A DNA stretch of 64,000 bases from Verrucomicrobiia bacterium. GTDB lineage: Bacteria > Verrucomicrobiota > Verrucomicrobiia > Palsa-1439. A program made the translations under genes and the position numbers. This document shows, piece after piece, positions 43,054 to 58,579 of this stretch; positions within the stretch are counted from its first letter, which is position 1, and every line of letters begins with the position of its first letter. The stretch lies in contig JBEKBH010000006.1 in the NCBI GenBank assembly GCA_050015495.1, forward strand, positions 67,661 through 131,660, in the 5' to 3' direction. The notes under the pieces are model-generated. The model worked only from the letters and a program-made list of their open reading frames with translations, ran no database searches and was not told the DNA's origin.

Positions 43054-44001
43054 TCAGACCCGGGGAAGGGCTGGTGGCATCGGCGCGTTGACTGACCACG
43101 CGTCGAGGGGGTTTACTTGCCCGCAATCGACACATCGGGTGACATCGAACCGTGCCCCGCAGTGGGGACATGCGGCATGCGTCACGAACGTGTCGAATAC
43201 AGTCCCGCACTGGCCGCACTTCCAGAGCGCGCCCTGTGGCGGAGCCGCGTGGCAGGACGGGCAGGCAAACCCTTCATGACGGGGCGCCGCCGCCAGCCGG
43301 GCGAGCACACGGGCCTGTTGCAGGCCGCGCCAACAATTCATGAGGATGAACGCCGCCATAATGCCGAACCAGATCGATTGAGCCCGCAACGCCAGCACCA
43401 CCAATCCTGCTACGCCGACGAAGCCGATGATCACCGCTGCCATCAAACTGCGCGCCCGGCCCATGACAAACCATAGCAACGCGCGCAGAATCTGCCCGCC
43501 ATCGAGCGGATATACCGGCAATACATTGAAGATCAAGAGCACGAGATTGATGACCCAGACGGCGTACAGCAGTCCATACACGTCGGGCGCGGAATTCGGC
43601 CAGCCCCAGGAGGTCGCCGCCACACGCGCGATCGTAAGCACTGGGAACAGCACAACGTTGACCAGCGGCCCGGCGGCGATGCTCCACAGAACGGCGCCGG
43701 GACGGGGCGGAGGATCCACGTACGCCACGCCTCCGAGGGGCCAGAGCACGATTTGATTGGCGCGCCCGCCAACGCTACGGCAGGCCAGCGCGTGGCCGAA
43801 CTCGTGCACCGTGACGATCACGAACAGCGCCAGATATTCCAGGCCGTTCCACAGCAGCGAGGAGTAGTCATGCCCGCGGTTGCTGATTTCGTATGCGGCC
43901 ACGATGAACCACGACCAGTGCAGGAACACGGTGATGCCCGCCACTTGGAAGAGGCGGATGGAACCCTGCCGGGTCGGCATCATTTGTTCTGATCCCCGCA
44001 C
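43054..44001 (-). CDS. Site-2-protease-type M50 family zinc metallopeptidase with a C-terminal double zinc-ribbon
   Basis: HEFGHAL (HExxH) within a TM helix. Later ..LDGG motif. C-terminal CPSCH...CGQCG...CPHCG...CVDCG. Confidence 0.75.
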   Translation of the reverse strand: MRGSEQMMPTRQGSIRLFQVAGITVFLHWSWFIVAAYEISNRGHDYSSLLWNGLEYLALFVIVTVHEFGHALACRSVGGRANQIVLWPLGGVAYVDPPPRPGAVLWSIAAGPLVNVVLFPVLTIARVAATSWGWPNSAPDVYGLLYAVWVINLVLLIFNVLPVYPLDGGQILRALLWFVMGRARSLMAAVIIGFVGVAGLVVLALRAQSIWFGIMAAFILMNCWRGLQQARVLARLAAAPRHEGFACPSCHAAPPQGALWKCGQCGTVFDTFVTHAACPHCGARFDVTRCVDCGQVNPLDAWSVNAPMPPALPRV

Positions 44002-44168: not shown

Positions 44169-45326
44169 TCAGATGGCGGCGGGTTTTCCACCCGGCGCGC
44201 AGACGCGGCGATACAACGCTTCGTAGCGGGGCACGATGGCCTCCGCGGAAAATAGCTCGCGGGCGCGGTGTTGCGCCGCGCGCCCGAGCGTGGACCGGCG
44301 GACCGGGTCGTTGATCAGACTCTCGACCGCACGGGCAAGGACATCGGCATCGCCCGAGGCTACCAGCAGTCCAGACACGCCGTCTTCGACCACCTCCGGA
44401 ATGCCGCCGGCGCGCCGGGCGACACTGGGACAGGCAAAACACATCGCCTCGAGAATGCTCAGACAAAAGCTTTCCGATTCAGAAGTGAACAATCCGAGGT
44501 CAGCCGCCTGCAGATAATCTTCGATGTCATTGACCCGTTCGCGTACGACCACCCGATCCTCAATGCCCAGCCGGCGCACGTCGGCGGCGAATGGCGCGAA
44601 ATCCCCGCCGGCGAGAATAACGAGTTTGAACGCGGCGCGGGGACGGATGCGCGCGACGGTTTCGAGCAGTAGATCGATGCGTTTCAGCGGACGAAGATTC
44701 GAGGAATGCAGCACAACCACTTCATCGCGCACACCCAGGTCGCGCCGCACCTCTTCCCGCGTGCGCCGAGTCGGGCGAGGCGCAAAGAAACTGTGAATCA
44801 CTTCGATGGGACGATCCACCGCGAGCAACTGTTGGGTCTCCTGTTGCAGAAATGCGGACACAGTCGTAATGGCATCCGAGCGGGCGAGAGCGTGGCGGAT
44901 CGCCGGCCCATAGCCCGGATCACGGCCCAGCAACGTGGTGTCCGTGCCGTGCAGCGTCGTGACGACCCGCGGCTGTTGCTCTGGTGGAAGCATCGCCCGC
45001 GCAAGGATGGCCGCGGTCGCGTGGGGCACGGCGTAGTGAACATGCAGCACATCGAGCCGGTGGTCGCGGCTTACCTCCGCCATCTTGACGGAAAGCGGCA
45101 GCGTGTAGTCGGGGTATTTGAACAAATCGTAATCGTTGATGATCACCGGGTGGAAATGAATCCGTGGCGCGTCCACCGGCAGACGGAACGGACGTTCGTA
45201 GCTGATGAAATGCACCTCGTGGCCGCGACGCGCCAACTCCTCGCCCAATGCGGTGGCGAGGATGCCGCTCCCTCCCACCGAGGGATAACAGGTGATGCCG
45301 ATCTTCAGTGGGCGCCCGGTCGTCAT
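44169..45326 (-). CDS. bshA: N-acetyl-alpha-D-glucosaminyl L-malate synthase BshA (GT4)
   Basis: N-terminal LKIGITCYPSVGGSGILATALGEELARRGHEVHFIS closely matches the BshA signature. C-terminal GT1 EX7E region. Confidence 0.7.
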   Translation of the reverse strand: MTTGRPLKIGITCYPSVGGSGILATALGEELARRGHEVHFISYERPFRLPVDAPRIHFHPVIINDYDLFKYPDYTLPLSVKMAEVSRDHRLDVLHVHYAVPHATAAILARAMLPPEQQPRVVTTLHGTDTTLLGRDPGYGPAIRHALARSDAITTVSAFLQQETQQLLAVDRPIEVIHSFFAPRPTRRTREEVRRDLGVRDEVVVLHSSNLRPLKRIDLLLETVARIRPRAAFKLVILAGGDFAPFAADVRRLGIEDRVVVRERVNDIEDYLQAADLGLFTSESESFCLSILEAMCFACPSVARRAGGIPEVVEDGVSGLLVASGDADVLARAVESLINDPVRRSTLGRAAQHRARELFSAEAIVPRYEALYRRVCAPGGKPAAI

Positions 45327-45332
45327 GGCAGC

Positions 45333-46082
45333 TCAAAAATGACGCGCACCCCGGCTCGCTTGTGCGAGCGAATCGAGAACGAGCGGATCGTTTGGGAACA
45401 GGGCCATGGCATGACCAATGCCGGCGCGCAGTCCCCACAACCGCGCGCGCGTGAGTTGCAACTCGACGTAGTTGCGGGTACGAGATTGCGACGCATGCGT
45501 TTCCATCGCGGCGGTCCACGCGGCGACGATTTCCGGCGCGGAGATGTCGATGAGCACCGGCGTGGCACCGGACGGTTCCGCTTCGGGTGTTATCGCGTAG
45601 AAAAAGAGTTGGTCGATCCCATGTGGAGGCAAGGCGCGCAATTCCTTCAAGCCGCCGTAACGAGCCAGCCGCGCCGCGTCCCGCACCAAATGTCCGAGCC
45701 GCGCATGGTCGGGGTGCTGATTTCCCACCAGGCTCGGTGCGAGCACAATGCCCGGCCGCACGCGTCGGAGAATGCCGGCCAGGTGAATGGCGTGAGCCGC
45801 GCGGACCTCCAGGCGGGCATCACCGCCGAGTTCGATAAACTCCACTGACGCGCCGAGGAGCGCGGCGGATTTTTTCGCCTCGGCGATCCGTTGCGCGGGC
45901 GAGCCGTGCGTGGCCGCCTCGCCGCGGGAGCAGACAACAAAGTGCGCCTCCCGGCCGGCGCGGACCTCACGCGCAACAACGCCACCGCACCCGAACTCAA
46001 TGTCATCGGGATGCGCGCCAAAGGCGAGCAGCGGCGGGAGTTTACGAAGCGATTTCGGTGTAGGCTTCATCGGAACGGTCAA
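45333..46082 (-). CDS. bshB: PIG-L/LmbE-family deacetylase, BshB-like
   Basis: LAFGAHPDDIEFGCGG signature. Adjacent to bshA. Confidence 0.65.
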   Translation of the reverse strand: MTVPMKPTPKSLRKLPPLLAFGAHPDDIEFGCGGVVAREVRAGREAHFVVCSRGEAATHGSPAQRIAEAKKSAALLGASVEFIELGGDARLEVRAAHAIHLAGILRRVRPGIVLAPSLVGNQHPDHARLGHLVRDAARLARYGGLKELRALPPHGIDQLFFYAITPEAEPSGATPVLIDISAPEIVAAWTAAMETHASQSRTRNYVELQLTRARLWGLRAGIGHAMALFPNDPLVLDSLAQASRGARHF

Positions 46083-46818
46083 TTATATCACGATTCACGC
46101 AGGTAATCTCCGGTGCTTGTTCCTTGTGCAGGTATGCCTGTTCGCCGGCGCCAGCGACGTAATGGGTACAATGCACGACGGACTGCATCCATCGCAGCCG
46201 CGTGTCGCGCGTCGGACTGATTTGCTCTTTGGTAAAGGTCTTTCCCGTCAGAGTCACGAAGCGGTCTCCACCCTCGTGCAGTGTTAGAACGTCGTTGTTG
46301 TGGCGGGCCCGCACAATTTCGCCCTCATGCGGGACATCGACGAAGAAGTCCTCGACATCGCAAGCCGCGCGGCGGAACGAAGGGTCGCTGGAGCGCGCCA
46401 CGGAGATTCCGTCGAGCAGGCCCATGTGGCGATACATCTCCAGGCAAAAGTTGGCCACAGTACCGGCGGAAGTTTTCTGGAAGACATCGAGGCAACGGCG
46501 CTCGACATAGTTGGGCAATTGGAGAGCAGTCCGGGCGTGCCAATCAGCGGGAATGCGTTTGAGGTAGAGCGGGCAGAATTTTCGTTGGAGCCTGTTCTCG
46601 AACGTAAAGTTGAGCGCCGCCGATTCGCCGGTCTTGCGATGGCGGAGGATGGTCTTCGTTTCGCGCGGGTCATGATCGCTGTCATGATAGAAGAACACAA
46701 TCTCGCCGCCGATCTCAGATTGCAGGCGGCGGGCTGTCCGGATCTTGGCGACAAGGAATCGTTTCGGGAAGAACCCGCACGGTTGCTGGCCGAAACAGAT
46801 GACAGGCGCGCCGGTCAT
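46042..46818 (-). CDS. Conserved hypothetical protein (possibly bacillithiol-pathway related)
   Basis: ATGA coupling to the symporter stop. No recognisable family. GQQP.G motif only weakly reminiscent of the BshC N-terminus. Confidence 0.4.
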   Translation of the reverse strand: MTGAPVICFGQQPCGFFPKRFLVAKIRTARRLQSEIGGEIVFFYHDSDHDPRETKTILRHRKTGESAALNFTFENRLQRKFCPLYLKRIPADWHARTALQLPNYVERRCLDVFQKTSAGTVANFCLEMYRHMGLLDGISVARSSDPSFRRAACDVEDFFVDVPHEGEIVRARHNNDVLTLHEGGDRFVTLTGKTFTKEQISPTRDTRLRWMQSVVHCTHYVAGAGEQAYLHKEQAPEITCVNRDIIDRSDEAYTEIAS

Positions 46819-48530
46819 GGAGTGGTCAAGGCCCTGGCGGGCTTGACGGTGGGGCCGAGAGCGGCCTGGATGAGCAGACTGAACAACACGCAGGCGGCGC
46901 ACCCGATGAAGTTGTACCAGAGATAGCTGATGTTAAGTGAAAAATAGAGGATGAAAACGAGCGCTTGGGCTGCCAGCGCTGCCCAGAAAACAGAGGTGCC
47001 GCCCACCCGTCGGATAAAGAACGCCACCAGAAACAGTGCCAGCACCACGCCGTAAAAAACAGACCCCACGATATTGACGGCCTGGATCAGGTTCTCTACC
47101 AGGTTCGCGAACAGAGCAAAAGCGAGCGCCACCAGACCCCAAAGAAACGTGAACCACTTCGACGCGGTCACGTAGTGCGCGTCGGTCGCTTCCCGTTTGA
47201 GCACGTGCCGGTAGAAATCGATGGTGGTCGTCGACCCAAGCGCGTTGAGTTCGGCGGCTTTCGATGACAGCGCCGCAGCGAAGAACGCGGCGACCAACAG
47301 CCCGATCAACCCATGCGGCAGATGATCCAGCACGAAAGTAATGAACACGTAATCGGCGTCGTTGGCCTTCGCCACCGGGTCCGCAGCCAGCAGTGCCGTC
47401 CTGGCCTCGGCGCGCACGGCCTCGCTGCGGTTAAGTGCCGCCTGCGCTTGGGCGTGGGCCTCGGCCTCAGCCGTGTGGTTGCCTGCGTGTTTGGCATCGA
47501 TCCATGTGTGAATCAATTGTTCCTTTTGTTCGTGGATCGCGGTGAATTTCTGCTCGATGGAATGGAGTTGTCCGCCCGGGTCGTGTTGGGCCGCCAGGTT
47601 CCAAGCGGCCCTGTTGAAGAATACCGGTGGCCGTTCGAACTGATAGAATACAAAGACCAGCACACCGAGCAGGAGAATAAAGAACTGCATGGGGATCTTG
47701 AACACGGCATTGAACATAAGACCGAGCCGGCTCTCGCGCAACGAGGCCCCGGAAATATAGCGTTGCACCTGGGATTGATCCGTGCCGAAGTATGACAGCG
47801 ACAGGAAGAGGCCGCCGAGCAAACCCGACCAGAGAGTATAACGCCGCTTGACATCGAGCGAAAAATCCACCGCCTGAAGTTTTTGGAAGCCGCCCGCCAC
47901 GGTGAGGGCGTCGGTCAACGAGAAATTCGCCGGCAACCTCATCAACAGAACGACGAACGCGGTCACCATTCCACCGAAGATGACAGCCAACTGGTATTTC
48001 TGGGTGAGGGTCACCGCCTCGCTGCCGCCGGCTACGGTGTAAATGATGACCAGCAGCCCGCTGAGGATGATGGTGAGATCCAATCGCCAGCCGAGCATGG
48101 TGGAGAGGATGATGGCGGGCGCGTAAATGGTAATTCCGGCGGCGAGCCCGCGCTGGAGGAGGAACAGTGCCGCCCCGAGCAGGCGGGTCTTGTTATCAAA
48201 CCGGTGACCCAAGAACTCATAGGCGGTGTAGACATTCAGCCGGCGGTACATTGGCAGGAACACCGCCGCGATGATGATCAGCGCCAGCGGCATCCCGAAG
48301 TAATTTTGCACGAACCCCAGCCCGTCCTGATAGCCCTGGCCGGGAGTGGAAATGAACGTGATGGCGCTCGCCTGGGTTGCCATGACCGAAATACCGATGG
48401 CGGCCCATCTCACGTTCGGGTCGCCCTTGAGATAGGCGTTGAGGTCCCGTTGGCCGCGCGTGCGCCACATGCCGTAGACGGCAATTCCGACCATGCTGCC
48501 GATCAAGACTACGAAATCGAGCGGGCTCAT
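46815..48530 (-). CDS. Sodium:solute symporter family (SSF) transporter
   Basis: 13-14 TM helices. SSF-like N-terminus ...WAAIGISVMATQASAITFISTPGQGY. Start chosen at M28 (48530), coupled to the upstream small ORF. Confidence 0.8.
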   Translation of the reverse strand: MSPLDFVVLIGSMVGIAVYGMWRTRGQRDLNAYLKGDPNVRWAAIGISVMATQASAITFISTPGQGYQDGLGFVQNYFGMPLALIIIAAVFLPMYRRLNVYTAYEFLGHRFDNKTRLLGAALFLLQRGLAAGITIYAPAIILSTMLGWRLDLTIILSGLLVIIYTVAGGSEAVTLTQKYQLAVIFGGMVTAFVVLLMRLPANFSLTDALTVAGGFQKLQAVDFSLDVKRRYTLWSGLLGGLFLSLSYFGTDQSQVQRYISGASLRESRLGLMFNAVFKIPMQFFILLLGVLVFVFYQFERPPVFFNRAAWNLAAQHDPGGQLHSIEQKFTAIHEQKEQLIHTWIDAKHAGNHTAEAEAHAQAQAALNRSEAVRAEARTALLAADPVAKANDADYVFITFVLDHLPHGLIGLLVAAFFAAALSSKAAELNALGSTTTIDFYRHVLKREATDAHYVTASKWFTFLWGLVALAFALFANLVENLIQAVNIVGSVFYGVVLALFLVAFFIRRVGGTSVFWAALAAQALVFILYFSLNISYLWYNFIGCAACVLFSLLIQAALGPTVKPARALTTP

Positions 48531-48709
48531 GAAAACATAACCGTCAGTGCGGCAAGCAACCCGACCCAAATGACAAAGGAAATGAATACGAAGACGTAGA
48601 CACCGCGCCACGTGGCAAGGCCCGGCAATCCGGTCGTTTGGTCGCTGTCGGCACCCGCCGGCCCGGGCGGCCCGGCGTGGGAATTGGCGGTGTCGTTCTG
48701 CGGCTTCAT
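48527..48709 (-). CDS. Small membrane protein (putative SSF small subunit, DUF4212-like)
   Basis: 60 aa with one C-terminal TM helix (VYVFVFISFVIWVGLLAALTVMF). Start and stop overlaps with both neighbours. Confidence 0.4.
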   Translation of the reverse strand: MKPQNDTANSHAGPPGPAGADSDQTTGLPGLATWRGVYVFVFISFVIWVGLLAALTVMFS

Positions 48710-51234
48710 TTTCCCAGCGAAATCAGGTTGGCAAACAGCCGGTAGGCGCCGGGCACGCCCTCGGGCAACTCACGGAACCATGATAGCCCGGTATAAACGA
48801 AATACCCGCGACCGTAGCGGGCCACCAAGAGGCTCCCCGTTTTGGGTGACTCGCCGGGGTCGTTGCACGCCAGTAGCGGCGTGAAATGGTCGTCCCATTC
48901 GCTGGCAAAATACAGTCCGCGCTCCTGCACCCAGCCATCGAAATCGGCGGGAACAATGCGGTTGGGTGTTGTAAAGGCCGGATGGTCCGGCGCGAGCAGT
49001 GTCATCGGCGCGGTTGCGTCCGTGACGCGGTCGTGCGAGAGCTTCAAATCGTAGGGGGCGAGACGCGTGTTCTGCAATCCATCGGATGTGTTGTACTGGA
49101 CGATGACGGTGCCGCCGGCTACGACGTATGCGAAAAGCCCCGGCAAATTTTGGGTGAGGTCCGTGCGGGTATTGAAGGCCCGAATGCCGATCACCACCGC
49201 GTCAAGGCCGCGCAGGTGTTCCGCTGTCAGGTCGGTGTCGGTCAGGAACGTGACCGCATAACCCATCCGTTGGAGGCACTCGGCGACCGAGTCGCCGGCG
49301 CCCGGCAGATAACCGATCTGATGACCGCGAATCGCCAGGTCGACACTCAGGGCCTTCAGACGCGCGGGCGGCTGTAACAAGATCGTGGGGATATGGTCGT
49401 GGTGGATTTCGACGTGTCGATTGTGGTAGCTCTTGCCGTCGATCTCGGCGGTAGCCAGGATGTTTGCGGTCGTTGTGTTCGTCGGGGCCGTGACGGTGAA
49501 GGTGAACCGCGCAAGTTCATTGTAGTTGGTCATGGCGAAAGCGTACGTCGCGGGCGTCACCTTCCACTCGGCGGGCGCGTCCAGATGCAGTGTACCGGTC
49601 GCTCCGGCGCGAGCTGAAGTAACCTCGACCGCTATGGGACGGGACGAACCCGGAGCGAACAGCTCCAGGTTTTCGGGAAAATTGAGGGAAACCGGCGGGG
49701 TCACATCCAGACGCCGACGAATCTCGCCTTTCACGCGGTCGCCGATGACTTGCACGGGTTCGTCCGGGATGACCAACGTTTGGCCGCCGACCTCGAAAAC
49801 AAACTCAACCGGAAAAGCAGGCGGATTCTCGGGACGACCGATGAGTGATGGATCGTCCACCCGGAACATTCCGATCGTGCCCTCTTCGCGCAACCAATAC
49901 GGTTGGGTGAACGGCGTGGTGGCGGGGAGAATCCGGGGCGATTCGTGAGTCACACTTTGGTTTGGCTTCAGGTCGGTGTTGATACCAAGTTCGTCTCCGC
50001 CTGCCGGGTAGCGCACGGCAGTCCAGCGCACCGGGACATCGGCCCGCACGATGGCGACATGATGCATTTTGAGCGTTTCGCCCGGCACGGCTTCGGCCAG
50101 CGGTATGGTCGTCTCGACAAACAACCCGAGACAGCCCTGCAAAATGTGGTCGAGCTGTCGGCGTTTGTCTGCGATCACGCTGTCTGCGGGCAGGGCGGCG
50201 AGGCGGCTCCGCAATGCGAGCAATGCCGGCACACTGGCGGCCGGATTCTGCGGATTGAATTGCGCAATGACGTCATCGGCCAACCGCCCGATCTCGGCGC
50301 CGCCGGGGACGCGGCCCCAGGTTGTATCAACGCCGTCGAGAATGTCCTTGGTGGCGGGCTCGCCACCGAGGAGTTGAAAGGTCTCGTTGGCCGTCCCGCG
50401 CGTACCGACGCTGCCAAAGCCCTGCGTCTTGTGCATGCTTCGGCTGAGCGCGGCGATTTCACCGTAGGACTGGCCAAGGACCGGGTTGTAACCGCCGACA
50501 TCGATCTGCAGGCTTGGCGCGTTCGTCTCGCTGTCCGGACCGCGTCCGAATCCTCTCGGGAAACCATTCCAGAGGACGCGTTTTGGTTGCCACGGCTTCA
50601 ACTCGCTGAGTTGCTCGGGAAAAGCGTTGGTGTCCCCGGCGAGCTTGAAGGCTTCGACCGCGAGGATGGCGGACGCCGTGTGGTGACCGTGAGTCCCGCC
50701 GGGCACGGTGGAAAAGCGCGTGATGAGCACATCCGGTCGGAACTCGCGGATGACACGCACAACATCGGCCAGCACCTGATCGCGGTCCCAGATACGAAAC
50801 GTTTCACGGTAATCCTTGGAGAATCCGAAGTCGGTGGCCCGCGTGAAAAACTGCTGGCCGCCGTCAACCCGCCGGGCGGCCAGTAACTCCTGGGTGCGGA
50901 CCACACCCAGTTCTGAGCCCAGCTCGGGACCGATCAAGTTTTGGCCGCCATCGCCACGGGTCAGCGAAAGATAGCCGGTGCGGTAGCCCCGACCGCGGGA
51001 CAGATAGGCAATGAGACGGGTGTTTTCGTCGTCGGGATGTGCGGCGATGTACAGCACGCTGCCCATTTCGCGGAAACCACGGAGTTCCTGCAAGATCGCC
51101 GATGTTGATTGAGGTTCGGCGGCGTAGATGTCGATGGGGAATAGGGTCAGCGCACAGCCGGCGGCGGCGAGGAAGCTGAGGAGCCAGCGGATGTGGCGGG
51201 AGGCAGACCTCTTAAATCGAATTCTGGCATGCAT
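48706..51234 (-). CDS. Multidomain PIG-L/LmbE-family deacetylase (842 aa) with signal peptide and C-terminal GATase1/ThuA-like domain
   Basis: YIAAHPDDENTRLIAYL...HGHHTAS PIG-L motifs. C-terminal ..LDAVVIGIRAFNTR...YVVAGGTVIVQYN. Confidence 0.7.
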   Translation of the reverse strand: MHARIRFKRSASRHIRWLLSFLAAAGCALTLFPIDIYAAEPQSTSAILQELRGFREMGSVLYIAAHPDDENTRLIAYLSRGRGYRTGYLSLTRGDGGQNLIGPELGSELGVVRTQELLAARRVDGGQQFFTRATDFGFSKDYRETFRIWDRDQVLADVVRVIREFRPDVLITRFSTVPGGTHGHHTASAILAVEAFKLAGDTNAFPEQLSELKPWQPKRVLWNGFPRGFGRGPDSETNAPSLQIDVGGYNPVLGQSYGEIAALSRSMHKTQGFGSVGTRGTANETFQLLGGEPATKDILDGVDTTWGRVPGGAEIGRLADDVIAQFNPQNPAASVPALLALRSRLAALPADSVIADKRRQLDHILQGCLGLFVETTIPLAEAVPGETLKMHHVAIVRADVPVRWTAVRYPAGGDELGINTDLKPNQSVTHESPRILPATTPFTQPYWLREEGTIGMFRVDDPSLIGRPENPPAFPVEFVFEVGGQTLVIPDEPVQVIGDRVKGEIRRRLDVTPPVSLNFPENLELFAPGSSRPIAVEVTSARAGATGTLHLDAPAEWKVTPATYAFAMTNYNELARFTFTVTAPTNTTTANILATAEIDGKSYHNRHVEIHHDHIPTILLQPPARLKALSVDLAIRGHQIGYLPGAGDSVAECLQRMGYAVTFLTDTDLTAEHLRGLDAVVIGIRAFNTRTDLTQNLPGLFAYVVAGGTVIVQYNTSDGLQNTRLAPYDLKLSHDRVTDATAPMTLLAPDHPAFTTPNRIVPADFDGWVQERGLYFASEWDDHFTPLLACNDPGESPKTGSLLVARYGRGYFVYTGLSWFRELPEGVPGAYRLFANLISLGK

Positions 51235-51333: not shown

Positions 51334-51903
51334 CTATTTCTTGACCGTGAACGGCACGGAGAACTGTGTGCTTTCCCACATCATTTTCAGCACACCGCCT
51401 CCGGCCGGGTTCTTTTCGACGGCAATCGTGAACTGATCCACCGGCTTGTCCAACGCGTCCTTCTTCAAATCAATCCGCGCCACATCCAGAGCCTCGTCGT
51501 ACACCTGCTTCGAGTCACGCGGGCTAACACCCCATTGACCGATCTGTTTGTTGACGATCAGTTTGGCCGTGCCACCTTCATTGGGCAGGGTCCACAAGGT
51601 GAAAGCGCCCGCCGGGATCGTTGTCTCGCCAAAGGCGATGGGTTTCTGCGTGATGAGGAGTGTGGCTTCGTCGGCCCCGGTGCGCCAGACCTTGCCGTAG
51701 GGCACGAGGCCACCCCAGATTTTTCGTTCCTCACCCGTCCGGGGATCCTTGGTATATGGACGCCCGTATACAATCGTGACTCGATTGCCGTCGATGACCG
51801 TGCTGATCGTCTCGTGCGGGCTGAAACGCTTTTGCTGGGCCATGAGCGGCGATGCGCTGAGGATGACTGCGGCAACAACGAGCATGGATTTGAACTGGTT
51901 CAT
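51334..51903 (-). CDS. DUF2911-family secreted protein
   Basis: Signal peptide. GGLVPYGKVWRTGADEAT signature of DUF2911. Confidence 0.65.
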   Translation of the reverse strand: MNQFKSMLVVAAVILSASPLMAQQKRFSPHETISTVIDGNRVTIVYGRPYTKDPRTGEERKIWGGLVPYGKVWRTGADEATLLITQKPIAFGETTIPAGAFTLWTLPNEGGTAKLIVNKQIGQWGVSPRDSKQVYDEALDVARIDLKKDALDKPVDQFTIAVEKNPAGGGVLKMMWESTQFSVPFTVKK

Positions 51904-51969: not shown

Positions 51970-52848
51970 TCAATGGAGGCTGGAGATCAAATCCTGATTC
52001 ATCTTCACGAATGAGCTGTTGGGGCCTTCCGCCTGGACCGCCAACTCGCTGGACTGTTTGGCGGCGGCAATCGCGCCGTCTTTGTCTCCCTGTTTCGCCA
52101 GAATCCTGGCCTTCAGGTTCAGCAGTTCGTACGCGATCCTGGGCTTGTCAGCGAGCCCGGTATCCAGCCAGGCGAGGGCCTTTTTCAGATCCAGATCGTG
52201 GTTGAAATAGAACGTCGCCGCCTGAAAGTAAAACTGCGGCTGCTTCTTGTCGGGCGACGCCAGGGCGGCCTCGATCTGCGGCACCACCTTGCTGACGACG
52301 TCAAGTTCGAGTTTGATGGGGACGACCGTCTTGTCCCAAGACAGGTTGATGATGGCCGATTCGTCGCGGATATGATTGAACTCGATCACGAATGTTTCGA
52401 TGGACGTGTCCGCAAGTTGTACAGGCGTGACCTTGAAGCGCACCAGATCGTTCTCCTGCTTGTAACCGAAGGCCCCAAACGAGTTCGTGTCCTTGGAGAT
52501 GATCACGGTCCATTCTTTTTCACCCGGTATCGTGTAGAGCGCATATTTGCCCGCGGGAACCTCGTTGCCGTTGAGCTTCACGGCGGTCGAAAAGGAAATC
52601 TTCGTGGATGCGTTCGCGCCGGTGCGCCAGACCACATCGTAGGGAACGATACCGCCAAAGATTGTCCGCCCTTTGACACTAGGTCGTGAATATACGATTT
52701 CAATGTCCGTAAGACCGACGTGCTGCTTCAGGGTCGCGGTGGGGCTGGCCGCGGGGAAATCGACTTTGGGTGCTTGCGCGAGGAGCCCCGTGGTGAAGAC
52801 CGACCCGAGAGCAAACACAATAGAAAACCAACGTGCCGTTGTGTTCAT
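51970..52848 (-). CDS. DUF2911 domain protein with C-terminal TPR-like helical domain, secreted
   Basis: GGIVPYDVVWRTGANASTKISF. C-terminal helical repeats. Start at M85 of the longer ORF, giving signal peptide MNTTARWFSIVFALGSV. Confidence 0.6.
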   Translation of the reverse strand: MNTTARWFSIVFALGSVFTTGLLAQAPKVDFPAASPTATLKQHVGLTDIEIVYSRPSVKGRTIFGGIVPYDVVWRTGANASTKISFSTAVKLNGNEVPAGKYALYTIPGEKEWTVIISKDTNSFGAFGYKQENDLVRFKVTPVQLADTSIETFVIEFNHIRDESAIINLSWDKTVVPIKLELDVVSKVVPQIEAALASPDKKQPQFYFQAATFYFNHDLDLKKALAWLDTGLADKPRIAYELLNLKARILAKQGDKDGAIAAAKQSSELAVQAEGPNSSFVKMNQDLISSLH

Positions 52849-53124: not shown

Positions 53125-54459
53125 TCAAGCCCACACGCCGGCAATCCTGGTCTGGCAGTACTTGCACTTCCCGTCGGCGATGTCCAGTCGCGTAACGGCG
53201 AAGATGTCGCGCTCGACAATGGCCCGATGACAATTCGGGCAGAACGTTGTCTCGGCATCCGGCAACCCGCGGACGTTCCCCACATAGGCATAACGCAGAC
53301 CCGCCCGGCGCGCGATGTCGCGGGCGGCCACCAGCGTGTCCACCGGCGTTGGCGGCAAATGCTCCAGCTTATGCGCCGGGTGAAAACGCGAGAAATGCAG
53401 CGGGTGATCCGGTCCGATGTTGCTGACCAGCCACTCGCACATGCGTTTGATTGTGTCCAGATCGTCCGTGTACGTCGGCACCACCAGGTTGATGACCTCG
53501 AACCACACATCCATCTCCTGTAACGTGACCAGCGTGTCGAGAATCGGCTGCAGATGGCCCGAGTTGAGCCTCTTGTAAACTTCGTCATCGAACCCTTTCA
53601 AATCCACGTGCGCGGCGTCAAGGTGCGTGGCCAGATCCCGTAGCGGCGTCTCATTGATGAAACCGCAGGTGACGAAGATATTCTTCAGATTGTGCGCGTG
53701 GGCGAGCCGAGCCGTGTCCGTTACGTACTCGTAGTAGTCCGTCGGCTCGGAATAGGTGTAGGCAATCGACGGGCACCCCAACGCCTCGGTCACGGCCACG
53801 ACGTCTTCGGGCAACATTGTCAGCCGCTGCGTGTCGTCCAGCGTGAGTGATTCCGGCAACGGCGGGCGCAGTCGCCGTGAGGGGCCGGTCGGGTCCTTGG
53901 TTTCTTCCGGTTGTTTCTGCGAGATTTCCCAGTTCTGACAATTCAAGCAGCGGAAACCGCAGCCGGAAGTGGCCAGCGAAAAACTCGTCGTGCCCGGATG
54001 AAAATGGAACAGCGGCTTCTTCTCGACGGGATCGACGTGAAAAGTGCACGGATCGGCATAGGCCATCGTATAGAGCGTGCCGCCCCGATTGACTTTGTTA
54101 CGGCAATGGCTGCGGTCGCCGGGCGCGAGCAGGCAGTTGTTCGGGCAGATTTTGCACTGGACGTTGTCGCCGAGTTTGAGATAGTGCGCCGCTTCCTTCA
54201 CCCATCCACGCTGTTGCCAGAGCGCCCACACCTTGTCACTCGGTCCACCGCCCCGGAACGCGCCGGTGAGCGCGATCTCCTCGCGGGCCTGCCGGAACAG
54301 ATACCACGCCAGCCCGCTGACACCAGCGGCACACGCCAGCCCGCTGACACCATAACGGATCGCTTCCCGCCGCGTTATGGGTCGCTGCGGAGCGCCCAGC
54401 AGTGCAGCATCGAGTCCATCCTCTCTCTCCGGTCCCGTCGGTTTCACCACCGGATCCAT
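53125..54459 (-). CDS. AmmeMemoRadiSam-system radical SAM enzyme (PFL-activase-like), with N-terminal Tat-like RR motif
   Basis: CGFRCLNCQNWEIS (CxxxCxxC) cluster. Genomic pairing with the Memo-AMMECR1 protein. N-terminal ITRREAIRYGVSGLACAAGVSGLA. Confidence 0.8.
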   Translation of the reverse strand: MDPVVKPTGPEREDGLDAALLGAPQRPITRREAIRYGVSGLACAAGVSGLAWYLFRQAREEIALTGAFRGGGPSDKVWALWQQRGWVKEAAHYLKLGDNVQCKICPNNCLLAPGDRSHCRNKVNRGGTLYTMAYADPCTFHVDPVEKKPLFHFHPGTTSFSLATSGCGFRCLNCQNWEISQKQPEETKDPTGPSRRLRPPLPESLTLDDTQRLTMLPEDVVAVTEALGCPSIAYTYSEPTDYYEYVTDTARLAHAHNLKNIFVTCGFINETPLRDLATHLDAAHVDLKGFDDEVYKRLNSGHLQPILDTLVTLQEMDVWFEVINLVVPTYTDDLDTIKRMCEWLVSNIGPDHPLHFSRFHPAHKLEHLPPTPVDTLVAARDIARRAGLRYAYVGNVRGLPDAETTFCPNCHRAIVERDIFAVTRLDIADGKCKYCQTRIAGVWA

Positions 54460-54713
54460 CGCTTCCTTCGCATCGCGAGGTAAATGCCACCCAGCGCGTG
54501 CAGCCCAAACATTACCAGCAGCGGCACGTGCAGCAGGCGGTGAATGGCGAGCGCCATCCTCGGGTTGGCCCGACCGCCGAGCGTGAACTGGCCGCTCATC
54601 ACATACCCCGTTGTGATATAGGTTAGCACCAACGCCAGCAAAAACCAACTCGTAAACCGCAGCGTGCGGATGACTATGTAGCCCGTCCGAATTCGCCGGC
54701 GCGGCTGGTTCAT
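54444..54713 (-). CDS. Small 2-TM membrane protein (89 aa), translationally coupled
   Basis: Two hydrophobic helices (FTSWFLLALVLTYITTGYV and LLHVPLLVMFGLHALGGIYLA). ATGA overlap with the upstream gene stop. Confidence 0.35.
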   Translation of the reverse strand: MNQPRRRIRTGYIVIRTLRFTSWFLLALVLTYITTGYVMSGQFTLGGRANPRMALAIHRLLHVPLLVMFGLHALGGIYLAMRRKRWIRW

Positions 54714-56830
54714 CGAGTTCCTCCCGCCAACAGCCACACCGCGCTCGCGGCATTCAAACCCCCCGCCAACAGGCACGTTACCGTCACCCCCAGAAGTGGA
54801 ATGAGAAGTGTGCTGGCCAGCAGTGCGCCGAGGCACGCGCCGGTGAAGTCCGCAGTGTACAATCTCGACGCCGTTCCGGTCACATCGCGGAAGCTCGTCC
54901 GCGTCGCCAGGGGAAACTCCATGCCGACCATGGACGCCAACGCGAGCGTGAGCAGGGCGATCACCGCGTGGATGATCGGTAAGGGAGCGTGCTCGAGCGA
55001 TTTCAATCCAGCCGGGAGTATCGCCGCGAGAAGCGCGATCCCCAACGCGAGTCCCGCCAACGGAATACGGTTGCCGATGGGGCGATACCGCGTCGCCGCG
55101 GACGCCCCCACCGCCAAGCCAGCCATGAACATCGTGACGATCACACCAACTTGACGATACACGGAGCCGCACAGAATTTGGAAGCCCAGGAGCAGTACAA
55201 CCTCCAACGCCGAGGCCGCAAACCCGGAAGCGAAAATCGCAAACGGTACGGCCTGCATCCGCGCAAGGTACGCCGCGAAGCCGGAGACCAACACGATCGC
55301 CCACAGGCCGTAGCGCTCACGGAACTGGCTCATCCAATGCAGGAGGTGATAGTAGTATAGCACCGGGTTGAAGTCGGTGTTCACTGTCGCCCGCGCCGCA
55401 GTGGCTCGCTGCATGTCCGCCAGCCGGTCGGGCGTCAACACCGCGCTGAGATAATGCCGGTTCACCAGGTGAGTTGACACGCCCGACTGCTCGATGCGCG
55501 TGGAGATGTCTGCGTAGAGTTCGCCGTCCGAGGCCAGGAAGAATACCCGCCCGCCGGGAATCACGAGTTGGTGGCGAAACGTCCGCTGCAAGGTCGCGGA
55601 TGCCGAGGCCAGGACGCGCGCCAGTTCGGGACTGACGAAGTTTTCATAGTGGCCCAGCGAGAAGGCGAACACACCCCCCGGCGCGAGCACCCGCTTCGCC
55701 TCGTCAAAGAACTCGGAAGTGAAGAACCGGTTGATCTGCGACGTGGATGGCGGCGGCACATCCACAATCACCACGTCAAATGTCTCCCGCGTGCGCTTCA
55801 CGAACAACCGGCCGTCGGTGTTCAACACCCGGATCCGCGGGTCGGCGAGGCTATCCGGAAGGAAGCGACGGCCCACTGTGATGATCAGGGGGTCGAGTTC
55901 CACGTACGTCACCTCCGCGACGCCGTACTTGAGAATCTCACGCGCCGTGCCAGACACGCCGCCGGCAATCAGCAAGACACGCTGGGCGCGGGGTCGTTGC
56001 GACATCGCGTAATGCACGGTCTCCTCGACCTCCTCGACGTTGTGCGTCGCAATCACCGGGACGCCGTTCTCGATAAAGTTCAACTGGCCGGCGGATTCGG
56101 TCACGACCAGTTTACCGTAGGGCGAGTTGCCGCGAAACACGACGCGCTGGCTGGAAAACAGCCGCGCGGTGGAGGCACCGTCCACGTCCATCGCGACCAA
56201 CGCCGGCACCAATCCCGCGGCCATGATACCCGCCACCGCCGCAACCCAGTATTGCCGTTCATGCCAGGCGAGCCACCCGGCAACCAGCAGACAGACAAGC
56301 GCCGGTAGGCTCAGGAGCGCGAAATGGTCGAACCGCCGCACCAGGACATAGGTAAATAACGCTCCACCGAGGACGCTGCCAACACTGTCAGTAACGTACA
56401 CGGTGCCGATGGCGCCGCTGCCTTGGGGCGTCGCGAGCGCGCCGCAGGCCAGCGTCAGCATATAGCCGGACACAATGCAGAACGGTGCCAGCCACAACAG
56501 ACTCGCGATCACGGTTTCCGACAGGCCAATCGCTGCGCCCCGGACAAAGACCACGTTGCGCAGTTCGCGCAGCATGAACACTTGGGCCAACGGCAGGAGA
56601 GCGACGAACACGAGCAGGAGCGCCAGTGTGCGTTGCGGGTGACGCACGCGACCGGCCGTCCGTCCGAGCCAGGAGCCAAGTCCCGTCAACAACAACCAGT
56701 TGCCGAGGATCACGCCAAGAGCCAGTTCATTGCCGCTGAACACGCACAGCATCTCGCGCATGAGCGCCAGTTGCGTCATCGCCGCCATGACGCCCAGCGC
56801 GCAGACTGCGAGCCCCACGCGGCGGTTCAC
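54710..56830 (-). CDS. Fused polytopic-membrane / spermidine-synthase-like (polyamine aminopropyltransferase fold) protein
   Basis: Spermidine synthase motifs VLLIAGGVSGTAREILKYG..EVTYVELD and FDVVIVDVPPP between N- and C-terminal multi-TM blocks. GTG start at 56830 overlaps the upstream TGA. Confidence 0.7.
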   Translation of the reverse strand: MNRRVGLAVCALGVMAAMTQLALMREMLCVFSGNELALGVILGNWLLLTGLGSWLGRTAGRVRHPQRTLALLLVFVALLPLAQVFMLRELRNVVFVRGAAIGLSETVIASLLWLAPFCIVSGYMLTLACGALATPQGSGAIGTVYVTDSVGSVLGGALFTYVLVRRFDHFALLSLPALVCLLVAGWLAWHERQYWVAAVAGIMAAGLVPALVAMDVDGASTARLFSSQRVVFRGNSPYGKLVVTESAGQLNFIENGVPVIATHNVEEVEETVHYAMSQRPRAQRVLLIAGGVSGTAREILKYGVAEVTYVELDPLIITVGRRFLPDSLADPRIRVLNTDGRLFVKRTRETFDVVIVDVPPPSTSQINRFFTSEFFDEAKRVLAPGGVFAFSLGHYENFVSPELARVLASASATLQRTFRHQLVIPGGRVFFLASDGELYADISTRIEQSGVSTHLVNRHYLSAVLTPDRLADMQRATAARATVNTDFNPVLYYYHLLHWMSQFRERYGLWAIVLVSGFAAYLARMQAVPFAIFASGFAASALEVVLLLGFQILCGSVYRQVGVIVTMFMAGLAVGASAATRYRPIGNRIPLAGLALGIALLAAILPAGLKSLEHAPLPIIHAVIALLTLALASMVGMEFPLATRTSFRDVTGTASRLYTADFTGACLGALLASTLLIPLLGVTVTCLLAGGLNAASAVWLLAGGTR

Positions 56831-58464
56831 TTCTCCGATTCCTTGAAGGATTCTACGCGGTAGATGAACACCTGCGTGCCCGGTGCGCGCCAGTCGTCCG
56901 CGGCTGCGCCCGCCTTTTCCGCGAGCGTGTCCAGAAACCGCGTCTTGTCTGGTATCTGCTCCCAAACCTGCGGCAGGTACGTCGCCGTTCTACCGTCCAT
57001 CCGCAGGACGACGCCATCGCGATATGGCTGCAATTTGGCCAGCAGGTCTTCCGGCGAACTGAACGCCAGTGGCTCCGGCACCGTGAGCACGCTGATTTCG
57101 ATCTCGACCTTGTCGAGTTCGTCCGGCCGGACGGGCTGGAATCGGGGGTCACGCGTTGCGGCGTTCAGGGAGTTGTCCATCACCGCCTTGTAGAGCGGCT
57201 CCTGGGGTTGGATGTGGCCGATGCACCCGCGCAGGCGACCCTGTTCGGTGAGCGTGACGAAGCATCCTTTTACATCCGCGAACTTCCGCGGAAAAGCGTT
57301 GGTCTTCACTTCCGGCAGTTTGTCGTTGGTGACAACCTCCGTGAGGCTCTGTCGGGCCAGTCGCAGCAGTTGTTCCCGCTCTTCATGGCTGAACGCCTGC
57401 AGCGATGGGGAGCAAAAGGCGATGGCGGCGTAACCGACAACGCTGTCCTTCCGTCCGGCTGTGTCGCCGCTGTTACGAGCATCGAGCAATGTGGCTTTCC
57501 AGCCTTTTGCTCGTGCCAATGAAAGCAACGTCAGCACGCCGGTCTTGCCGCAGGCCTCCTCAGCCTTCATCCGGTCAACATCAAGATCGCAGATGGCGGA
57601 CACGCAACGCGCATCCTTCTCGCGCGCGATGTCATATGGATAGTAGTGACTCAGGTCCGTGCTGACCACCAGTAGCGTGTTGTTGTCGAGACGGTCCGCC
57701 AACGCCTGCGCAAGCTTCGCGGGGTCAACCTCGCCGGTAATGATCGAGACGAGCGAGAAATTCGTCAGCGTCTTCTGCAGGAATGGCACCTCCACTTCCG
57801 CCGAATGCTCCCACGTCTCCGGAGTATCCTCACCGAATTCCGGCTCCGGATGCGAGGCCTGCTTCGACCACGGAGGACGCTGCACCAGACACTTCGGTTC
57901 GGGCACGAAGGGCCCGGCTTCCGCCCATTGCCTGGCCTTGGGCGATACGGACACAAGCCCAAGCGGTGTCCGATACGCGTCCGCGGCGATCACTGACGCG
58001 CCTCGAAACAACGCGTAGTGACTCGGCGCTAGGATGACGACGGTATCGTACACGCGCCCCGCCAGCAGCCGGTAGGCTTCGGCAGCGACCGGGCCGGAAA
58101 ACTCGTAACCGGCGTGCGGACACAAGATGGCGCGCAACTCGCCTTCAATCACCCGCGGTTTCGCGCCCGCCAGAAGGGCGTCAATTGTCTGCGACAGTTG
58201 TGCCGCATCCCGGGGATAGAACAACCCGGCTACGGCCGGTTCTCTCACGACCAGCGGCGCCTTGAGATTCTCAGACGATCCGGTCGTGCTGCCACCGGAT
58301 TGCGCAGTACGTTGAATGTTGGTCGCGACCGCGCTGGCGCTCAGACCGACCGCTTCCACCGGAGACGCGACCGCGATGACCGTCAGGATCGAGGCCACAA
58401 AGAGGACGGTACGGCAGAAGGATCCAGGCGAAGTGTAGTGCTTACGGCCGCGCGGCATTTTCAT
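56827..58464 (-). CDS. Memo-family / AMMECR1 fusion protein (AmmeMemoRadiSam system proteins B and A fused) with N-terminal signal peptide
   Basis: Memo region ..RAILCPHAGYEFSGPVAAEAY... C-terminal AMMECR1 region ..GCFVTLTEQGRLRGCIGHI... N-terminal hydrophobic TVLFVASILTVIAVASPVEA. Confidence 0.75.
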   Translation of the reverse strand: MKMPRGRKHYTSPGSFCRTVLFVASILTVIAVASPVEAVGLSASAVATNIQRTAQSGGSTTGSSENLKAPLVVREPAVAGLFYPRDAAQLSQTIDALLAGAKPRVIEGELRAILCPHAGYEFSGPVAAEAYRLLAGRVYDTVVILAPSHYALFRGASVIAADAYRTPLGLVSVSPKARQWAEAGPFVPEPKCLVQRPPWSKQASHPEPEFGEDTPETWEHSAEVEVPFLQKTLTNFSLVSIITGEVDPAKLAQALADRLDNNTLLVVSTDLSHYYPYDIAREKDARCVSAICDLDVDRMKAEEACGKTGVLTLLSLARAKGWKATLLDARNSGDTAGRKDSVVGYAAIAFCSPSLQAFSHEEREQLLRLARQSLTEVVTNDKLPEVKTNAFPRKFADVKGCFVTLTEQGRLRGCIGHIQPQEPLYKAVMDNSLNAATRDPRFQPVRPDELDKVEIEISVLTVPEPLAFSSPEDLLAKLQPYRDGVVLRMDGRTATYLPQVWEQIPDKTRFLDTLAEKAGAAADDWRAPGTQVFIYRVESFKESEK

Positions 58465-58579
58465 TTCCGATCAACTCCCACGCGACCCGAAGGCGTTTGC
58501 GCCGACCGCACACGCCCACCGACTTGGCAGAATTTTCGCCCCGTGCCCGACCCTTGGTCAAGTCGGAAATCCGCCTCAG

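Follow-up and report, generated by a model that had tools for sequence, protein, structure and literature searches.

Cells rely on low-molecular-weight thiols as their basic redox buffers, and the Verrucomicrobiota form a major phylum of soil and freshwater. The closest described systems to the locus considered here are the bshA/bshB/bshC pathways for bacillithiol (BSH) of the Bacillota, Bacteroidota, Chlorobiota and Deinococcota. The locus is a gene cluster on the minus strand of a 64,000-nucleotide stretch of DNA, hereafter the window (assembly GCA_050015495.1, contig JBEKBH010000006.1, positions 67,661 to 131,660), which belongs to the metagenome-assembled genome (MAG) of a Verrucomicrobiia bacterium. 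Its fourth gene encodes a protein of 258 amino acids (aa) that is compared below with BshC. BshC was first identified through its co-occurrence with bshA rather than by homology, its activated cysteine donor is unknown, and in B. subtilis the bshC gene lies apart from bshA and bshB1 (PMC5790435). It has been reported by Hiras et al. that Verrucomicrobia are without a documented or predicted low-molecular-weight thiol (PMC6282198), and a 2025 survey of RefSeq placed Verrucomicrobiota among the phyla without a complete set of BshA, BshB and BshC (PMC12719100). The criteria of that survey included similar lengths of query and subject and a coverage of more than 80% (PMC12719100), so that a remote BshC relative of half the usual length would be invisible to it.

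On balance, the locus can be read with moderate confidence as a complete operon for bacillithiol or a close derivative (Cys-GlcN-malate, GlcN being glucosamine), in which a compact BshC is joined to an envelope module. It shares with the canonical pathway the same first enzyme and a deacetylase of the same type. It differs in that candidates for all three enzymes stand in one tight string, that the third enzyme is a compact and remote relative, and that a symporter and a putative exported PIG-L hydrolase are joined to them by gene overlaps. The genes, from upstream to downstream, are as follows.

51970 to 52848, minus strand: second DUF2911 protein, about 292 aa from the ATG at 52848, with a signal-like N-terminus and a TPR-like tail (PF11138, 184 bits).
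51334 to 51903, minus strand: first DUF2911 protein, 189 aa, with a signal-like N-terminus (PF11138, 134 bits).
48706 to 51234, minus strand: PIG-L842, a predicted exported multidomain PIG-L hydrolase of 842 aa (PF02585, N-terminal hydrophobic segment).
48527 to 48709, minus strand: small membrane protein of 60 aa, with one transmembrane (TM) segment by hydropathy.
46815 to 48530, minus strand: sodium:solute symporter (SSF), 571 aa (PF00474, TIGR00813).
46042 to 46818, minus strand, ATG at 46818: compact BshC-like protein ('mini-BshC'), 258 aa, recognised from its AlphaFold (AF2) model and Foldseek.
45333 to 46070, minus strand, ATG at 46070: BshB-type PIG-L deacetylase, 245 aa (PF02585, relatives in the PDB).
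44169 to 45326, minus strand: BshA, the UDP-GlcNAc:L-malate GlcNAc-transferase (GlcNAc being N-acetylglucosamine), 385 aa (TIGR03999 equivalog).

The 258-aa protein carries the public annotation 'hypothetical' (the copy in the window is MGD1018652.1), and an earlier note on this DNA had likewise left the fourth gene as merely hypothetical, with bshC to be sought elsewhere. Neither Pfam nor NCBIfam contains a match to the protein, the same holds for 26 members of its family at E<=10, and no PDB sequence was matched by phmmer or by the family profile. The AF2 model, built from the 26 members, reached a pLDDT of 94.6 and a pTM of 0.91. When this model was compared with the PDB by Foldseek, the sole match with E<1e-3 was 4WBD, the BshC (YllA) of B. 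subtilis (E 1.5e-9, probability 1.00, TMq 0.64), and a BshC-type Rossmann core is present in the predicted structure. A true structural relationship between the 258-aa protein and BshC is highly probable, and the gene that was to be complemented from elsewhere thus appears to be itself the compact BshC-like member of the set. The next matches were class I aminoacyl-tRNA synthetases (aaRS) with E >4e-3; identity as a generic aaRS fragment was considered and rejected, because the match to BshC is better by six orders of magnitude.

MshC and CysRS are class I aaRS-type Rossmann enzymes as well, and MshC attaches cysteine to a glucosamine amine. The likeness of the 258-aa protein to them lies in the aaRS folds that make up the second tier of its structural matches. 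However, neither is among the top 50 matches of the model, where TyrRS, GluRS and GlnRS are found instead, and the HIGH and KMSKS motifs are not evident in the protein.

The 258-aa family comprises 6889 clusters at 90% identity, most of them 70-95% identical to the query. An exhaustive phmmer search of 1.84 billion representative sequences gave just 242 clusters at 50% identity, which are mostly fragments with about eight at full length. No member longer than about 290 aa and no long BshC-like protein was found in this search. The family is very well conserved yet narrow. Four low-identity entries (P0130, P0134, P0172 and P0215) were excluded from the family alignment as frameshifted junk. Apparent fusions of the protein with PIG-L, SSF or the family 4 glycosyltransferase (GT4) domain (P0193, P0248 and P0245) have the look of artefacts that arise where genes overlap, through read-through or fragments, and were for this reason left out of the evidence. 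No paper describing a short BshC-like family was found in the literature.

At the sequence level, an 18-member BshC alignment built around the recovered 4WBD sequence was compared with the 26-member alignment of the 258-aa family. By hhalign, the two gave a single collinear alignment, of weak statistics, of residues 4-232 with BshC residues 83-359, in which the positions that appear to be shared are the hallmarks of BshC, namely QQ.G, DHD..E, S(G/S)DP, R..MQ and T....G..E..Y. The corresponding signatures of BshC itself are GQQ.G, EDHD..E, SGDP, R.LMQE and T....G.GE..YW, and over the two families together the second can be written (E/S)DHD..E. In the 258-aa family, the residues that match these signatures are near-invariant across 88 loci. 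The likeness to canonical BshC (PF10079 plus PF24850; 4WBD) lies in a collinear Rossmann core, in the partners BshA and BshB and, as far as this alignment goes, in putative signature residues, and the modelled protein would be a stripped-down BshC relative in which the class-I-aaRS-like Rossmann core and the signature residues have been kept.

The differences are considerable. Canonical BshC has about 540 aa, twice the length of the present protein, which has no counterpart to the N-terminal ~80 residues, the internal inserts or the C-terminal coiled-coil dimerisation domain of BshC; this last domain (PF24850) is present in all canonical BshC matches, and the alignment stops at BshC residue 359. 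The family also differs from canonical BshC in its distribution, being found in Verrucomicrobiota and, in at least one case, on an archaeal contig. It also has conserved residues of its own: C8, C125 and H219 are invariant and C217 is near-invariant, none of which BshC has at the aligned positions, and E226 is also listed among the conserved residues of note. C8 stands at the end of the first strand, where CysRS and MshC have a zinc-ligand cysteine, and the conserved cysteine and histidine residues could possibly form a metal or cysteine-recognition site.

These same features are what would be expected if the protein were a BshC-fold enzyme with a different job, placing another amino acid or an acyl group on GlcN-malate, or acting on another amine, so that the end product would not be bacillithiol and possibly no thiol at all. 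In addition to the missing parts of BshC and the family's own cysteine and histidine residues, the sequence identity to BshC of 13-19% and the occurrence of a distant relative beside a GNAT acetyltransferase, a hint at pathway variants, speak in its favour. On the other hand, the signature residues of BshC appear to be retained, in nearly all loci the gene is coupled to those of a genuine BshA and a BshB-type deacetylase, and published surveys predict no other low-molecular-weight thiol route in the lineage. Such a change of function is regarded as rather unlikely.

The identity of the first enzyme is clear. The product of the last gene of the cluster reaches 402 bits with TIGR03999, the equivalog model of BshA (cutoff 273.7), over residues 7-375 of 385, and it matches the solved BshA structures 3MBO, 2JJM, 5D00, 6D9T and 6N1X over the full length (E 3e-89 to 1e-83), whereas MshA is matched in the C-terminal half only (E 7e-18 to 4e-14). 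By sequence, this GT4 is classed as BshA in the strict sense. A role as MshA or as a generic GT4 was rejected by the TIGR03999 score and the far stronger matches to BshA structures, and the earlier suggestion that the enzyme might make a different GlcNAc conjugate finds no footing in them (402 against 273.7 bits; E of about 1e-89 for BshA structures against 1e-14 to 1e-18 for MshA). The 245-aa protein belongs to the PIG-L family (PF02585, 80.4 bits) and has the zinc motifs AHPDD and HPDH; among solved structures, it is closest to BshB1 6P2T (E 4e-22 over the full length), followed by 2IXD and 1UAN. On the BshB1 model TIGR04001, it reaches 116.1 bits, below the cutoff of 182.5, and it is therefore named BshB-type rather than BshB1. 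The assignment of this pair to BshA and BshB, proposed earlier from the letters alone, is borne out in this form.

The six core genes, from PIG-L842 to bshA, run head to tail on the minus strand from 51234 to 44169, and their open reading frames (ORFs) are found exactly where they had been called. The junctions between them are as follows.

48709-48706: PIG-L842 stop and small ORF start, ATGA overlap.
48530-48527: small ORF and SSF, ATGA overlap; the true start of SSF is the ATG at 48530.
46818-46815: SSF and the 258-aa ORF, ATGA overlap.
46070 (ATG) against 46044-46042 (stop): the 258-aa ORF and the BshB-like gene, 29-nt overlap.
BshB-like gene and BshA: 6-nt spacer (TGA gctgcc ATG), no overlap.

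A tight six-gene operon was rightly described before, and its genes were rightly called. The accompanying statement that every junction overlaps holds for four of the five (three ATGA and one of 29 nt), and has to be given up for the BshB-like/BshA junction with its 6-nt spacer. A single strand, four overlapping junctions out of five, one tight spacer and a conserved order, as read from the sequence, are the features of translational coupling.

The conservation of the arrangement was examined in a scan of one genome per species of the Genome Taxonomy Database (GTDB), in which the 258-aa gene was found in at least 567 species; the best 80 loci, nearly all from Verrucomicrobiota MAGs, were examined. 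Among these 80, the order DUF2911 (one or two copies), PIG-L842, small ORF, SSF, 258-aa gene, BshB-like gene and BshA is almost universal. Neighbour counts cover the species loci with enough flanking sequence, namely 70 downstream and 65 upstream. A BshB gene lies directly 3' of the 258-aa gene in 67 of 70 species, with a median overlap equal to the 29 nt of the window, and BshB is followed by BshA in 64 of 70. Upstream, SSF is the direct neighbour of the 258-aa gene in 54 of 65 species, at identities down to about 57%, and PIG-L842 precedes SSF in 50 of 65. This arrangement is far beyond chance. The coupling of genes for cytoplasmic thiol biosynthesis to an importer is unusual, as had been remarked, and it is conserved. 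Two loci carry the bsh triad without a nearby upstream module (L034 and L070), and inserted DNA separates the two parts in nine others.

Four loci (L001, L007, L076 and L078) have no BshB-like gene in the cluster, so that the deacetylase there must come from elsewhere or be another PIG-L enzyme; in L001, L007 and L078, bshA lies directly 3' of the 258-aa gene, and in L076 neither gene is adjacent. A number of MAG records (L017, L022, L028, L033, L036, L052, L074 and others) carry the same operon at more than 70% identity under implausible taxon names, such as Bifidobacteriaceae, Obscuribacterales, Akkermansia muciniphila, Baltobacteraceae and Acidoferrum, which suggests mislabelled or mis-binned assemblies.

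Taken together, a pathway of three steps can be proposed for the locus. BshA would form GlcNAc-malate from UDP-GlcNAc and malate, the 245-aa BshB-type PIG-L enzyme would deacetylate GlcNAc-malate as its putative substrate, and the 258-aa protein would join cysteine to GlcN-malate, with a thiol as the presumed product. Cysteine addition is assigned to the 258-aa protein because of its fold, the apparently shared signatures, the gene coupling and the reported lack in this phylum of a pathway with canonical BshC, and we judge it somewhat more probable than not that the protein performs the BshC step.

Since the fourth gene is BshC-like, the locus holds candidates for all three de novo steps rather than a partial set in need of salvage. 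The earlier note had favoured mainly salvage, in which an external GlcNAc conjugate is deacetylated in the periplasm and imported, the fourth gene has no defined part, and de novo synthesis would depend on a bshC elsewhere or not take place. The exported PIG-L enzyme and the importer in the same tightly coupled string are consistent with such a scheme, as is the absence of the BshB-like gene from the cluster in the four loci named above. However, apart from the BshC-like nature of the fourth gene, BshA, which is needed for de novo synthesis only, is a conserved member of the cluster, and no pathway with canonical BshC turned up for this phylum in the surveys. Salvage as the main function therefore appears quite improbable.

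Several points weigh against the reading of the locus as a complete bacillithiol-type operon with a compact BshC. A HMMER profile of the 258-aa family fails to find BshC or 4WBD, and the BshC models of Pfam and NCBIfam do not match the 258-aa protein. The hhalign score of the two family alignments is 24.6 (E 0.027, probability 1.8%), which is weak when taken alone; when a single BshC sequence was used instead, just the last motif was aligned. In favour of homology, the score was reached by only three of 300 BshC alignments with shuffled columns. Columns conserved to at least 90% in both families also coincide more often than expected (37 cases against 23), and the residue is identical in 18 of these 37 as compared with 25 of the 185 other columns, but this enrichment is biased, as the aligner prefers such pairings. 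Because the sequence support is weak, the homology to BshC rests mainly on predicted structure. Roughly half of BshC has no equivalent here, the dimerisation domain included, and the function may therefore differ; moreover, no one has yet reconstituted the reaction of canonical BshC (PMC5790435), so that 'working like BshC' denotes no defined chemistry. No canonical BshC was found in the window and the 88 loci, a scan of 1.48 Mb in total that includes no whole genome of the lineage. The score of the deacetylase below the BshB1 cutoff belongs among these points, and so does the finding that PIG-L842 and SSF lie apart from the bsh genes or are absent nearby in 11 of 65 species, which implies that the two modules may be functionally independent.

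More distant relatives of the 258-aa protein, with 40-43% identity (L083, L085 and L087/L088), lie beside PIG-L genes of the BshB1 or BshB2 type, an independent instance of the pairing with a deacetylase. One of them, P0138 (L083:8001-9430; 43% identical), is encoded on an archaeal contig with PolD DP1/DP2, Cdc6 and eIF-2beta, in convergent orientation to a PIG-L gene that scores best on BshB1 (119 bits). Published surveys have reported no complete BSH pathway in archaea. Another, P0147 (L087:1590-3660 and L088; 40% identical), stands between a GNAT acetyltransferase gene and a convergent BshB1-like PIG-L gene (156 bits), at a locus flanked by gatA and gatB. A third, P0142, is two genes away from a BshB2/Mca-like PIG-L gene. 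In mycothiol, the cysteine is N-acetylated by MshD, and by analogy the GNAT enzyme beside P0147 may mark an N-acetylated variant thiol.

The upstream part of the cluster begins with one or two DUF2911 genes, which precede PIG-L842 in most relatives; in the window, the gap between the first DUF2911 gene and PIG-L842 is 99 nt and that between the two DUF2911 genes is 66 nt. The conserved cluster probably extends upstream to these genes for putative exported proteins, which may belong to the same unit. No solved relative of DUF2911 was found, and there is almost no literature on it.

PIG-L842 has a basic and then hydrophobic N-terminus (residues 18-36), which is a predicted export signal or anchor; the targeting of this protein for export, suspected earlier, is in line with its sequence. 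Its PIG-L domain (residues ~61-300) is followed by tandem beta-sandwich domains in the middle of the protein and by a C-terminal region. The protein scores 58.7 bits on PF02585 (cutoff 28.2) and has the motifs AHPDD and HGHH, and it fails the cutoffs of all curated equivalogs, with Mca as the best (53.5 against 277 bits) and MshB at 31.6 against 224. Its top match by Foldseek is MshB 1Q7T (E 7e-11), its middle part resembles transglutaminase beta-barrels, and the solved relatives of the PIG-L domain include archaeal diacetylchitobiose deacetylases. The AlphaFold model has a mean pLDDT of 63.6, with residues 712-842 below 50, and the isolated C-terminal 224 aa have no Pfam match at E<=10 apart from noise; the label 'GATase1-like', given to this enzyme before, is for these reasons neither confirmed nor refuted. 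A search for relatives among viral contigs gave one irrelevant match. PIG-L842 therefore resembles MshB, Mca and diacetylchitobiose deacetylases (PIG-L, LmbE family) in its AHPDD-type metal motifs and in its best curated and structural matches, and differs from them in its predicted export, its roughly threefold length and its additional beta-sandwich and C-terminal domains.

The 60-aa protein has a single C-terminal TM segment, is joined by ATGA overlaps on both sides and has no match in Pfam or NCBIfam. It occupies the same position in most related loci, with 40-74% identity, and a gene for 43 aa is found in L001. The symporter scores 209 bits on TIGR00813 (cutoff 184) and 128.6 bits on PF00474 (cutoff 22.8) and has about 13 TM segments. 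Its nearest solved relatives are SiaT 5NV9 (E 2e-39), SMVT, SMCT1 and NIS, among which SiaT (sialic acid), SMVT and SMCT1 are carboxylate carriers. It is therefore similar to the SiaT/SMVT/SMCT-type symporters in its membership of the SSS family and in having organic carboxylate carriers as its nearest relatives, and different from them in an insert of about 100 aa and in the dedicated one-helix protein encoded upstream. This insert (residues ~297-395), hydrophilic and rich in Ala, Glu and His, lies between TM segments and divides the Pfam SSF match into two parts; an insert of this kind is not usual in the family.

As to the role of this module, it can be imagined that the exported MshB/Mca-like PIG-L enzyme, together with the one-helix protein and the Na+/solute symporter, would trim an external acid that contains GlcNAc or GlcN, and that the trimmed product would be imported by the symporter to feed the ligase. 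GlcNAc-malate, bacillithiol, its disulfide or its conjugates may be considered as candidate substrates. This scheme of trimming and uptake, which comes near the idea of salvage discussed above, is speculative and should be taken as a tentative possibility.

An equally tentative explanation is that two independent units are merely adjacent, in which DUF2911, PIG-L842, the small protein and SSF scavenge an external amino sugar, for instance GlcNAc glycosides derived from chitin or peptidoglycan, while the 258-aa protein, BshB and BshA form a separate thiol operon, the adjacency and coupling being a habit of the lineage. It accords with the bsh triads that stand without PIG-L842 and SSF nearby or behind inserted DNA, with the diacetylchitobiose deacetylases among the relatives of the PIG-L domain, and with the distant mini-BshC relatives, which pair with small PIG-L genes and not with a symporter. 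Against this, the stop of SSF and the start of mini-BshC share an ATGA in the window, the two genes are direct neighbours in most species even where identities have fallen to about 57%, and the solved relatives of the symporter carry carboxylates rather than neutral sugars, which fits a substrate that contains malate.

Other genes of the window were noted in passing. An intramembrane metalloprotease of the M50 family (43054-44001, minus strand), whose C-terminal tail is a double zinc ribbon, follows bshA after a gap of 167 nt, and its adjacency to the operon is not conserved in relatives. Further upstream of the cluster, an AmmeMemoRadiSam-type gene set (53125-58470, minus strand) encodes a radical SAM protein (53125-54753) and a fused Memo and AMMECR1 protein of 547 aa (56827-58470), between which lies an overlapping gene for a polytopic membrane protein with a spermine/spermidine-synthase domain (54710-56989).

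The finding to be retained is probably a new one, namely a variant of the bacillithiol pathway with an unrecognised compact BshC-like enzyme, in a phylum thought to be without the pathway, and with a conserved link to an uptake module. A bolder extension, which is unlikely to hold in all its parts, would make the 258-aa family the minimal catalytic core of BshC and the cysteine ligase so far missed in Verrucomicrobiota and some archaea, with Cys8, Cys125, Cys217 and His219 as a zinc site like that of CysRS and MshC, and with PIG-L and the symporter as an extracytoplasmic recovery loop for bacillithiol or GlcN-malate, by analogy with the gamma-glutamyl cycle of glutathione. No description of an uptake or recycling system for bacillithiol-related compounds was found in the literature, and uptake or recycling of this sort is suggested by the conserved tie to the symporter and the exported hydrolase. 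A half-size BshC without the coiled coil would be simpler for biochemistry and crystallography and would mark the essential residues of the enzyme. Surveys that require full-length matches overlook the 258-aa family; if the reading proposed here is true, this disguised BshC would fill the thiol gap of the Verrucomicrobiota and would imply bacillithiol-type chemistry in at least 567 GTDB species, and possibly in archaea.

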